Made by a program: the position numbers and the translations under genes. From NCBI GenBank assembly GCA_964371255.1, contig CAYJKV010000006.1, positions 9,806 to 73,805 of the forward strand: DNA of 64,000 bases. Direction: 5' to 3'. Positions within the stretch are counted from its first letter, which is position 1; the number at the start of each line of letters is the position of its first letter. The notes below the pieces were generated by a model. It was not told where the DNA came from. It searched no databases and saw only the letters and a program-made list of their open reading frames with translations. Below are positions 15,738 to 18,335 of the stretch, one piece after another. This stretch comes from an uncultured Candidatus Saccharibacteria bacterium (GTDB lineage: Bacteria; Patescibacteriota; Andersenbacteria; UBA10190).

Positions 15738-18335
15738 TTATTGGCTTGCCAGCCTCTGTTTACGTCGCTCTAGCGCTTCCGCACCGCCTTCTAAAATCTC
15801 CACTACTTCTTTTTTAATTTGATCATTTTCGATAGAACCGGATAAGTAGTTAAAGAACGGCTTGCTTCCACCCGTTTTATTAGCTATTAGAACCTCTTCA
15901 CTATCGCCAAGAATAACCAAATTTGCATTATGGGAAACAATAATTACCTGTCTGCCGATTTTTTCGCCCTTTAAAAAATTCACGATTTCTTTTGATATTG
16001 TTTTAGCATCCAGATCATCTTCTGGCTGATCTAATAAAACAGGGTAGTTATAATTATCAAATTTAAAAATAAACTCCAATAAAACTAACATTTTCTCACC
16101 GTCAGACATGCTATGAAAGTTGTTACCACTTTTGTTCTCAATACTTTGGAGAAAATCAATTATAAATCGGTTTCTAAAAAGCTCCGTGATTACAGTTTCC
16201 TCGTCTTTGCCTGCTATTATGCGCAAATCCCCAGACAGTACCCCCATTAGCAATTGTTTCAGTAGATTAGGAAAAATGACCGCATCATAATTCCATTCCT
16301 CTGGATTCTTCAGTAGGTCATTTATTTCCTTATATTTTGAATTGTTTTCCCTTACGGCTTTTGAATTATGATAATTAATATTTTCAGAAATAAATTCCCT
16401 AAAGCTTTTTATGTCGAAATTAGTAGTAACTTTTACCTTGGAAAAATCAAAGTTATCTACTTTTGAAAGCAAGCCATCATAGCGCGCATTATAACCCCAA
16501 TAAAGTCCAATAAGATTATTTCGACTTGTCTCATAGTCGCTAGATAGGATCATCAGCTCATTTGTAATAGTATTTACACTTTGTAAAGCATCCTTCCTAG
16601 CCTGCAGACTTTCTGCTAATTGCAATAATGCTTTGTGTTCCTCAATTTTTTTCCTAAGCGGCAGCAGTAATTCCCTTAATTTAGAAATCTCGATATTTAA
16701 TAATCTTTGCAATTCCTTTAAGGCGGTAATTTCCTGAGATATAAAACCTTTCTTGAATGCCTCATCAGAATCTTTTAGCTTAGCTTCAATCTTCTGTAAA
16801 AATTCAGGGGAAAAATCATATTCCGATACTTTTTCCGCTGTAATAACCGCCTCATTCTTAAGAAGACTTAAAGAAATCGAATTACTCTCAATGATCTTCG
16901 ACTGATTTTCTTTTACGGAGATTTCTGTGATCAACTGTTTATATTGATCTAATTCTTGCCTACTTATCTTTCCACTAGCATCGCCAGCTATTTTGAGTCT
17001 TATTTCCAAATTTTTAATGTCAGTCTTTAGAGACTCTTTCTGGCCTAGTTTTTTTAATATCTGTTTTTCATTTCGTCCTTTCTCTCTTATGGAGAGTAGA
17101 TTCTTGATTAATGATGCAATTTCTAATGAATTTTCAACTTCAAATTTTCTATACTCTTGAAGTTGTTGAGCGAAATCATTTCTGTTTTCAAATAGATTTA
17201 TCAAGAACTCACCTAAATTTTGACTGTCCTCATAAACAAGATCCCCCAAATAACGTTGAGGGATAAAAAGTAGTCCTTTAGTCTTCTCATCGTTTGTATT
17301 GAGTGTGTTTACTGCACCATCCTTCCAGAACACTTGAAAATTCTTGAGCTGCAGAAACTCCGTGCTATTGATTGCTTTTTGATTACACTGCTCGTAATCA
17401 ACAGCATATGCAATGTTCTTGAGTAGATTTGATTTCCCTGTCGCTCGACTACCTATGACAGAATTCATTCCCTCGCTAAATGAAACAACTATTTTCTGGT
17501 TCTCAGTTCCGATATATTCCACTCTATCAATCAGATCGTATAAAGGCTTCTCTTCGGGTTTTAATTCCTGAATTCTTACTCTTCCTTCTGGTTCATAAAG
17601 AATTTGTTTTAAACCTTGAAATGTAGGATCAGCCTTGATCCAACAGTTTTGCTTCGTAGTATAGCTATGTGCATTATGATTATCAGAACATACAATCATT
17701 GGACGATAACCAATGATAGGAAAAACAATTTTTATATAAGCTTCTGCATCTTTTTCTTGTCCCAACTCAAAAACGCCAACACAATCAGCAATATCTTCCT
17801 TTTGCGCCATCTTAGTTGGAAGTGTATTTGTAATTGTCTCTAGAGAGTTAGATTTTGATCCTGCATGAATCGTTACTATTCCGCCTAGACCTTTAATCAC
17901 CCCTGTGCTTGTTTTTAAATCACAATAGATTTGATTGTCGCCCTTTCCACTCTTTTTCTGAGAAGCAATTTCAAGCTTTGCATTTAGTTCTTGAGACAAA
18001 AAATCAAGATCAGAATCCTCGGGAAAAATGCCAATAATATGAATCGGCTCACTACCTCTTGAGTCTGTACAAAGCTCAATTCCAGGAAAAATCACAATAT
18101 CAGATCCTGCTATTTCCTTCAGAGATCTTATCCTATTAATATCCACTAAATGATGATCCGTCACTGCGACAGCACTAATTTCATTTTTCTTAAGAACCTC
18201 AATCAATTCTTCATTAGTTACTGCATTATTGCCGTAATCATAGGAAGAAGGAGTATGAAAATGGAGATCCCATTTTCGCCATTCAGATCCGCGTGGATAT
18301 ATCTTTTTCACCATACTACTAAGTTCGAAAATCAA
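15738..18335 (-). CDS. PHP-phosphoesterase + SMC/Rad50-like ABC ATPase (Ppl-like single-gene antiphage protein)
   Basis: N-terminal PHP motifs (DLHFHTPSS, AVAVTDHH, CSDNHN); Walker A GSRATGKSNLL; ~350-aa coiled-coil insertion; signature MSDGEKM; Walker B VLLDQPEDDLD; H-loop VSHNAN; ~33% GC. Confidence 0.7.
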   Translation of the reverse strand: MIFELSSMVKKIYPRGSEWRKWDLHFHTPSSYDYGNNAVTNEELIEVLKKNEISAVAVTDHHLVDINRIRSLKEIAGSDIVIFPGIELCTDSRGSEPIHIIGIFPEDSDLDFLSQELNAKLEIASQKKSGKGDNQIYCDLKTSTGVIKGLGGIVTIHAGSKSNSLETITNTLPTKMAQKEDIADCVGVFELGQEKDAEAYIKIVFPIIGYRPMIVCSDNHNAHSYTTKQNCWIKADPTFQGLKQILYEPEGRVRIQELKPEEKPLYDLIDRVEYIGTENQKIVVSFSEGMNSVIGSRATGKSNLLKNIAYAVDYEQCNQKAINSTEFLQLKNFQVFWKDGAVNTLNTNDEKTKGLLFIPQRYLGDLVYEDSQNLGEFLINLFENRNDFAQQLQEYRKFEVENSLEIASLIKNLLSIREKGRNEKQILKKLGQKESLKTDIKNLEIRLKIAGDASGKISRQELDQYKQLITEISVKENQSKIIESNSISLSLLKNEAVITAEKVSEYDFSPEFLQKIEAKLKDSDEAFKKGFISQEITALKELQRLLNIEISKLRELLLPLRKKIEEHKALLQLAESLQARKDALQSVNTITNELMILSSDYETSRNNLIGLYWGYNARYDGLLSKVDNFDFSKVKVTTNFDIKSFREFISENINYHNSKAVRENNSKYKEINDLLKNPEEWNYDAVIFPNLLKQLLMGVLSGDLRIIAGKDEETVITELFRNRFIIDFLQSIENKSGNNFHSMSDGEKMLVLLEFIFKFDNYNYPVLLDQPEDDLDAKTISKEIVNFLKGEKIGRQVIIVSHNANLVILGDSEEVLIANKTGGSKPFFNYLSGSIENDQIKKEVVEILEGGAEALERRKQRLASQ

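Follow-up and report, generated by a model that had tools for sequence, protein, structure and literature searches.

What does a gene that fuses a PHP phosphoesterase to an SMC/Rad50-like ABC ATPase do in the genome of a bacterium of the candidate phyla radiation (CPR; Patescibacteria)? The gene lies in a 64-kb stretch of contig CAYJKV010000006.1 from an uncultured Candidatus Saccharibacteria bacterium (64,000 nucleotides; this whole stretch is referred to below as the window), and an earlier note had put it forward as a candidate single-gene antiphage nuclease matching the defence system Ppl. Our analysis favours, with a probability of roughly 0.6, a stand-alone, nucleotide-gated PHP nuclease acting in defence; the gene is a horizontally acquired member of the TrlF family, of which Ppl is another branch. 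We infer the nuclease activity, the gating by nucleoside triphosphates (NTPs) and the anti-phage role from homology to Ppl, which is a validated single-gene anti-phage system (Gao et al., 2020).

The open reading frame (ORF) and the domains assigned to its product are as follows.

15738..18335, minus strand: PHP-ABC ATPase gene of the TrlF/Ppl superfamily, an 865-codon ORF counted from TTG 18335.
17571..18293, minus strand: PHP phosphoesterase domain (residues ~15-255), assigned from Pfam, family conservation, the AlphaFold2 barrel and Foldseek.
17250..17531, minus strand: N-lobe of the ABC/SMC head (residues ~269-362) with the Walker A motif and Q-loop, assigned from AlphaFold2, Foldseek and alignments.
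16476..17180, minus strand: antiparallel coiled-coil insertion (residues ~386-620, ~235 residues), assigned from AlphaFold2 secondary structure and the sequence.
15741..16460, minus strand: C-lobe of the ABC/SMC head (residues ~626-865) with the signature, Walker B/D-loop and H-loop, assigned from AlphaFold2 and Foldseek.

The true start is likely to be ATG 18314 rather than TTG 18335, giving a protein of 858 residues. This start is preferred because the gene callers and the homologues agree on it: the 858-residue protein is identical to database entry P0001 as called there, and in the homologue alignment the N-termini lie 7-10 residues ahead of the conserved RGSEWRKWDLHFHT motif.

Pfam SMC_N matches residues 279-810 (E of 1.2e-11). 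Pfam PHP matches residues 23-118 (E of 1.7e-5), although at 25.7 bits it falls slightly short of its gathering score (26.4). The metal-ligand set of the PHP domain is intact (D23-x-H25-x-H27, D60-H61, E87, H99, H157 and D218-x-H220). The head carries a Walker A motif (G295SRATGKS302; nucleotides 17430-17453), a Q-loop (Q360), a signature-like motif (M743SDGEK, residues 743-748), a Walker B/D-loop (L767LDQPEDDLD776; nucleotides 16008-16040) and an H-loop (H802). Both the PHP ligands and the ABC motifs are invariant or nearly so across the family, as judged by alignments of 16 and 64 members.

The AlphaFold2 model, which was built on the 64-sequence alignment and is confident (mean pLDDT of 87.2, pTM of 0.72), shows a PHP alpha/beta barrel (residues ~19-255) followed by an ABC head in two lobes (residues 269-360 and 626-865). 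Between the lobes, two long helices (residues 386-493 and 524-620) pack into an antiparallel coiled coil with arms of ~105 residues and an apex at residues ~494-523. In Foldseek searches against the PDB the ATPase part resembles the heads with coiled coils of Smc, MukB, JetC, Rad50, AriA and LmuB, and the N-terminus, searched separately, resembles the PHP domain of RNase AM (TM-score of 0.66), PHP phosphoesterases and the PHP domain of Pol III. No solved structure of Ppl or of another member of the TrlF superfamily was found in the PDB copy searched (by sequence, profile and Foldseek). The fusion of a PHP domain to an SMC/Rad50-like ABC ATPase that had been read from the letters is thus borne out by the conserved motifs, the predicted model and the structural matches alike.

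The top Foldseek and PDB-profile matches (Wadjet JetC, Lamassu LmuB, PARIS AriA, Septu/retron PtuA and Rad50/SbcC) have in common with the window protein a head fold with a coiled-coil insertion. The SMC-like defence ATPases among them also share the logic of an ATPase sensor coupled to a nuclease effector; however, the nuclease in the window protein is a PHP domain fused in cis and not one of the Toprim, HNH, Cap4 or Mre11 type. The window protein further differs from these ATPases and from Rad50/SbcC in its short coiled coil, the lack of a zinc hook and a Gln at the position of the catalytic Glu. Rad50, SbcC and RloC carry a zinc-hook CxxC at the coiled-coil apex, whereas the coiled coil of the window protein contains no Cys and the translation has none after residue 317, so that a zinc hook is absent. 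The likeness to SbcC, Rad50 and RloC seen in the earlier note therefore holds for the coiled-coil insertion, but does not extend to the hook. Rad50 and SbcC have a partner nuclease gene (Mre11/SbcD), whereas the genes beside the window gene encode an HD_3 hydrolase and a degenerate M23-like protein. RloC differs further, as it ends in an anticodon-nuclease domain while the C-terminus of the window protein is the C-lobe of the ABC head only. OLD, Gabija and PARIS pair an ABC ATPase with a Toprim or DUF4435-type nuclease; the window protein has no Pfam or PADLOC match to these families and has a PHP domain instead. Conversely, RNase AM/YciV, the PHP domains of PolX and Pol III, and Ophion OpnB share the PHP fold and metal motifs but lack a fused SMC-like ATPase. 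There is precedent in the literature for PHP domains in phage defence.

To which family does the protein belong? The best placement is given by the NCBIfam model NF045780 ('TrlF family AAA-like ATPase'), which the protein matches over its full length, with the same order of an N-terminal PHP domain and then a split ABC ATPase (448.8 bits, E of 6e-134, residues 15-862 against model positions 1-943 of 944; cut-off of 350 bits). Close relatives score 445-568 bits on the same model. The E. coli plasmid protein WP_015059139.1, a genuine Ppl, was used for calibration; it scores 1330 bits on the NCBIfam Ppl equivalog NF042955 (cut-off of 1000), 1826 bits on the PADLOC Ppl model and 477 bits on the TrlF model. 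Because genuine Ppl exceeds the TrlF cut-off, the TrlF model can be regarded as an umbrella with Ppl as one branch. A profile-profile comparison of the window clade with Ppl (hhalign) aligns 773 columns end to end with a probability of 99.9% (E of 2e-34). Plasmid proteins named TrlF by PGAP align over 85-89% of the query, and one encoded on a Klebsiella plasmid can be aligned from end to end (E of 1e-54), although at only 25% identity. On the Spaf_1101 model the window protein reaches 149 bits, which is below the cut-off of 475, and weaker PADLOC matches point to PDC-M49A and, among MADS components, to mad3 and mad8.

The base composition of the gene sets it apart from its surroundings. Among ORFs of at least 180 residues in the window it is the most AT-rich, as the earlier note had observed, with a GC content of 0.350 and a GC content at third codon positions (GC3) of 0.301, compared with medians of 0.48 and 0.50; the GC3 value is ~2.6 standard deviations low. 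The compositional signature of horizontal acquisition proposed from the letters is accordingly confirmed, and on this sequence evidence the gene is considered to have been acquired horizontally by its CPR/Patescibacteria host, to which its base composition is foreign. By its RpoD homologues the host falls within Patescibacteria, with Candidatus Andersenbacteria as the closest named matches (73-90% identity). The surroundings are chromosomal housekeeping genes (dnaG, rpoD, a PPIase, acs, an MBOAT gene, a sigma factor and a ParB/Noc-like gene). In metagenomic relatives that carry the sigma-ParB pair at 57-76% identity, the region downstream of it is devoid of homologues of the M23, TrlF, HD_3 and MBOAT genes. 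The absence of the block from these relatives argues against lineage-wide synteny, although they are too distant for a clean empty-site comparison.

The distribution of the family is very patchy. An exhaustive HMMER scan of 1.84 billion cluster representatives returned 989 relatives at E <= 1e-30 and 4551 at E <= 1e-10, and at least 577 relatives were found in the GTDB species genomes, where they occur in Saccharibacteria and other CPR, Bacteroidota, Firmicutes, Omnitrophota, Spirochaetes and Desulfobacterota, and in metagenome-assembled genomes of methanogens and haloarchaea. Plasmid records with a relative number 1159, of which 831 are conjugative, and eight phage records contain one as well. 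One family member (501 bits on the TrlF model) lies in the 22-kb record of Microcystis phage Mwe-JY31 (L097, 3404-6109); the family is therefore present on phage-like elements too. Identity to the window protein is only 53-56% even for its nearest relatives, several of which are from CPR (Yanofskybacteria and Saccharibacteria).

This distribution bears on whether the protein could serve housekeeping DNA repair, as an analogue of SbcCD/Mre11-Rad50 with a fused PHP nuclease in place of Mre11/SbcD. An SMC/Rad50-like head with a coiled coil would be compatible with such a role, as would the proofreading exonuclease function that PHP domains have in PolX and Pol III. The taxonomy of the family is, however, extremely patchy, and it is abundant on conjugative plasmids; the composition of the gene is foreign to the host, and no synteny is seen at the locus in relatives. 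There is no zinc-hook Cys, and the neighbours of family members elsewhere are defence and mobile genes. We therefore consider a repair function very unlikely.

The neighbourhoods of relatives were compared by clustering every ORF that lies up to 5 kb from the gene at 84-86 non-redundant loci. The commonest neighbour family occurs at no more than 11 loci (N6_N4 methyltransferase, 11; Type I-like methyltransferase with S subunit, 10; serine recombinase, 6), followed by PLD-ResIII-DUF3427 (five loci) and by SNF2, UvrD-PD(D/E)XK, TrlG-like, Fic and RhuM genes (four each). At 37 of 84 loci (44%), including that of the window gene, no same-strand ORF lies within 60 bp on either side. The relatives P0005, P0009 and P0114 are solo genes, surrounded by hypothetical, MazEF or recombinase genes. 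The gene of P0018 lies behind an M.HinP1I/R.HinP1I/Vsr module with an integrase nearby, and the Klebsiella plasmid TrlF adjoins an Abi gene and insertion sequence elements. At the locus of P0003 (55% identical) a helix-turn-helix (HTH) gene, an N6_N4 methyltransferase gene and a ResIII/SNF2 gene precede the PHP-ATPase gene, and recombinase genes adjoin. At that of P0006 (53%) the order is integrase, SNF2, Type ISP methyltransferase and then the PHP-ATPase gene, which is joined by a stop/start overlap, and PD-(D/E)XK, FokI-like and PARIS-like AAA_21 plus DUF4276 genes follow downstream. In L006, the locus of a close relative, the PARIS-like pair (AAA_21 ATPase and DUF4276) lies at 13861-15613. 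Taken together, the loci point to a gene that is mobile, sits in defence islands, has no obligate partner and is often carried along with restriction-modification modules.

These associations raise the question of whether the window protein might be the orphaned accessory subunit of a multigene system resembling restriction-modification (Type III, Type ISP or MADS-like), either inactive or with its partners elsewhere in the genome. That the genes of P0003 and P0006 directly follow, and overlap, methyltransferase and SNF2/ResIII helicase genes would fit such an origin, as would the methyltransferase found within 5 kb at 21 of 84 loci and the weak matches to mad3 and mad8. The 64-kb window, however, contains no methyltransferase, helicase-nuclease or TrlG-like gene (nor a TrlR, Fic, RhuM or recombinase gene), 37 of the 84 loci lack a tightly coupled neighbour, the close relatives P0005 and P0009 are solo, the ORF is intact with all catalytic motifs kept, and Ppl works as a single gene. 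An orphaned subunit is thus judged unlikely. Given its intact motifs and solo gene, the protein most likely works alone, like Ppl.

A further possibility arises from the family name. TrlF takes its name from the temperature-restricting locus (TRL) trlR-trlF-trlG of Photorhabdus laumondii, in which trlF had earlier been annotated as a histidinol phosphatase. If the window protein belonged to a TRL-type module, it would halt replication under stress (a temperature shift or nutrient loss) and cause growth arrest, with phage not being the target. Both the name and the model of the family come from the Photorhabdus protein, and TrlG-like genes (SLFN_AlbA_2 plus HATPase_c_4) adjoin four of the 84 loci. 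In the TRL operon, TrlG and the small HTH regulator TrlR are adjacent to TrlF; the window gene is flanked by the HD_3 and M23-like genes instead, there is no TrlG or TrlR homologue in the window, and linkage to TrlG is rare (~5%). The Photorhabdus suppressors, as set out below, also speak against a TRL-type role for the window protein, which we regard as quite improbable.

Returning to the stand-alone defence nuclease, several results weigh against it. The Ppl-specific models are not matched at the level expected of Ppl: the NCBIfam Ppl model gives 140.2 bits and the PADLOC Ppl model (PDLC02208) 129.3 bits over two stretches, and in both cases the best stretch is C-terminal only. BLASTP against Ppl aligns only the two catalytic ends, residues 16-312 (26% identity) and 744-864 (35%); the coiled coil between them shows no recognisable similarity. 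The temperature-tolerant suppressors of Photorhabdus are all in trlG (AlbA_2 plus HATPase_c_4) and none are in trlF, so that the phenotype of the operon is assigned to TrlG and not to TrlF. P0003 and P0006 are the closest relatives on long contigs, and their translational coupling to methyltransferase/helicase genes means that some members of the clade may need partners. Finally, the window contains no defence island and no integrase, and no convincing att-like direct repeats were found between 14400 and 19700.

The similarities to Ppl are nevertheless extensive. Both are encoded by single genes, with the same domain order, PHP motifs, Walker A motif, unusual LLDQPEDDLD Walker B motif and H-loop, and both occur on mobile DNA; the window gene encodes the PHP and ATPase parts in one gene, and no recurrent partner family accompanies it in the window. 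They differ in that Ppl is enterobacterial and plasmid-borne, whereas members of the window clade come from CPR and further environmental lineages. Because the Ppl-specific models failed, the TrlF model passed and the profiles align end to end, the protein is, on the sequence comparisons, a homologue of Ppl in a sister clade and not a Ppl orthologue, and we label it a TrlF-family PHP/ABC-ATPase. The proposed match to Ppl is thus retained as full-length homology but not as membership of Ppl proper. Similarly, superfamily, architecture, logic and solo context all agree with a single-gene antiphage nuclease, with the antiphage activity itself being proposed by analogy with Ppl.

How might such a protein work? 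According to a 2026 review, Ppl is a 3'-5' single-stranded DNA exonuclease that is inhibited by NTPs bound to its PHP and NTPase domains, and it is triggered by phage-depleted nucleotide pools and by the 3'-OH ends left by homing endonucleases (PMC12904381). The window gene, which is taken to have reached its host by horizontal transfer, lies in a small low-GC patch shortly downstream of a tRNA-Asn gene that contains an intron. By homology to Ppl, the SMC-like head of its product would bind NTP and probably dimerize, and in the NTP-bound state it would keep the N-terminal PHP metallo-nuclease, fused in cis, inactive. Infection would drain the nucleotide pools and expose free DNA 3' ends, which would release the PHP domain; the released domain would then degrade DNA exonucleolytically, and phage replication would stop.

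The head has one feature that is pertinent to this scheme. The usual catalytic Glu after the Walker B Asp is replaced by Gln (Q770), which is found in 64 of 64 aligned members and in Ppl. The invariant Gln suggests slow or no hydrolysis, and hence a nucleotide sensor rather than a motor. An engineered Glu-to-Gln substitution is the standard means of trapping SMC and AriA heads in the ATP-bound state, and such trapped heads are among the PDB entries returned by Foldseek [SMC3-HD(EQ) and AriA(E393Q)]. E772, two residues downstream of Q770, could still act as a catalytic base. The family-wide Gln fits nucleotide sensing better than a motor role, and this is directly testable.

The immediate surroundings of the gene comprise the following features.

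14724..15551, minus strand: M23/LytM-like protein, the tandem downstream neighbour (GC content of 0.408).
18431..18490, no strand assigned: 60-bp element with the perfect 15-bp palindrome TCGGAAGaCTTCCGA, ~96-117 bp upstream of the PHP-ATPase start.
18515..19117, minus strand: HD_3/YfbR-like hydrolase, the upstream neighbour (GC content of 0.43).
19156-19535, minus strand: split tRNA-Asn(GUU) gene with an intron at ~19194-19500, found by ARAGORN with introns allowed (the default run missed it).

The 3' flank of a tRNA gene is a classic landing site for foreign DNA. The tRNA-Asn gene lies directly upstream of the low-GC block made up of the HD_3, PHP-ATPase and M23-like genes, and its 307-nt intron is a group I intron (Rfam RF00028, 71.4 bits) inserted at anticodon-loop position 35/36. 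Intron-split tRNA genes of this kind have recently been described and experimentally validated in Patescibacteria (PMC13011429).

The M23-like gene had been described as a convergent, equally AT-rich neighbour that might be functionally linked to the PHP-ATPase gene, possibly with degenerate active-site residues. The degeneracy is clear: its zinc ligands are gone, with N...T opposite the lysostaphin HxxxD and no HxH behind it. The other parts of the description do not hold. The gene is on the same strand and hence tandem downstream, its GC content of 0.408 compares with 0.350 for the PHP-ATPase gene, and no M23 homologue lies beside the 90 other family loci. An N-terminal hydrophobic stretch has, by eye, the appearance of a membrane anchor. 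Like EnvC and NlpD, the protein probably acts as a LytM-type factor without catalytic activity. A strain variant (L003) in which the M23-like gene appeared to be split (13356-13455) was rejected as an assembly artefact, since it consists of a 100-N scaffold gap with a 55-bp duplicated overlap.

Could the HD_3, PHP-ATPase and M23-like genes nonetheless form a cooperating three-gene cassette, for example one in which a nuclease and a 5'-deoxynucleotidase salvage nucleotides together with an envelope-anchored LytM-like factor? The three genes are on the same strand and all have a below-median GC content (0.43, 0.35 and 0.41), terminator-like hairpins occur only behind the M23-like gene, and 5'-deoxynucleotidases are among the members of the HD_3/YfbR-like family. 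On the other hand, the GC values differ, the gaps between the PHP-ATPase gene and its neighbours are 179 and 186 bp, and neither neighbour has a match among the PADLOC models. Homologues of the M23-like and HD_3 proteins are absent beside the 90 other family loci (phmmer against their ORFs), with only the host's own contigs matching. A functional cassette is accordingly held to be highly improbable.

The same HD_3 neighbour enters into a variant of the defence reading, in which the CPR-enriched clade would be a dual starvation and defence switch, distinct from enterobacterial Ppl, that couples the supply of scavenged NTPs to DNA degradation or growth arrest. The adjacent YfbR-like HD 5'-deoxynucleotidase could then recycle foreign DNA into nucleosides. 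This variant assumes that the CPR host is probably unable to make nucleotides and lives off a host cell, and the clade would perhaps be akin to the growth-arrest phenotype of Photorhabdus TRL. We give such a switch little credence, and continue to favour the nucleotide-gated defence nuclease that works alone.

The 60-bp element upstream of the gene has a second copy at 12509-12568, which is identical at 58 of 60 positions and lies ~270 bp upstream of the sigma-factor gene. The two copies of this direct repeat are the only ones in the 64 kb, where none would be expected by chance, and they bracket the sigma, ParB, M23-like and PHP-ATPase genes. The repeat has no Rfam match and is absent from relatives. 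The element may represent either an operator or a remnant of recombination, and whether it belongs to the PHP-ATPase gene is uncertain.

With respect to this locus, an annotation has been refined in a routine way and no new system has been discovered; what modest interest the result holds lies in the CPR host and in the narrowness of the Ppl models. The assignment extends the Ppl/TrlF PHP-ATPase superfamily into CPR/Patescibacteria, which have genomes of ~1 Mb with sparse known immunity, and it shows that 'TrlF family', the name used by NCBI, and 'Ppl', the name used for the defence system, refer to one homologous superfamily. The Ppl-specific defence models cover just one narrow branch of this large family. 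We estimate the superfamily at roughly a thousand clusters at 50% identity, most of which would escape the Ppl-specific models of defence finders.

Two further observations concern the window as a whole. The gene at 9851-10621 (minus strand) is the second most AT-rich in the window (GC content of 0.388, GC3 of 0.307); it is annotated in the metagenome gene table as Arr-ms, of the rifampin ADP-ribosyltransferase family, is adjoined by a patatin-like gene and is probably another horizontal acquisition. Along most of the 64 kb the plus-strand GC skew stays strongly negative (approximately -0.2 to -0.37), levelling off at ~39-45 kb, which is consistent with mostly minus-strand genes and a single replichore.

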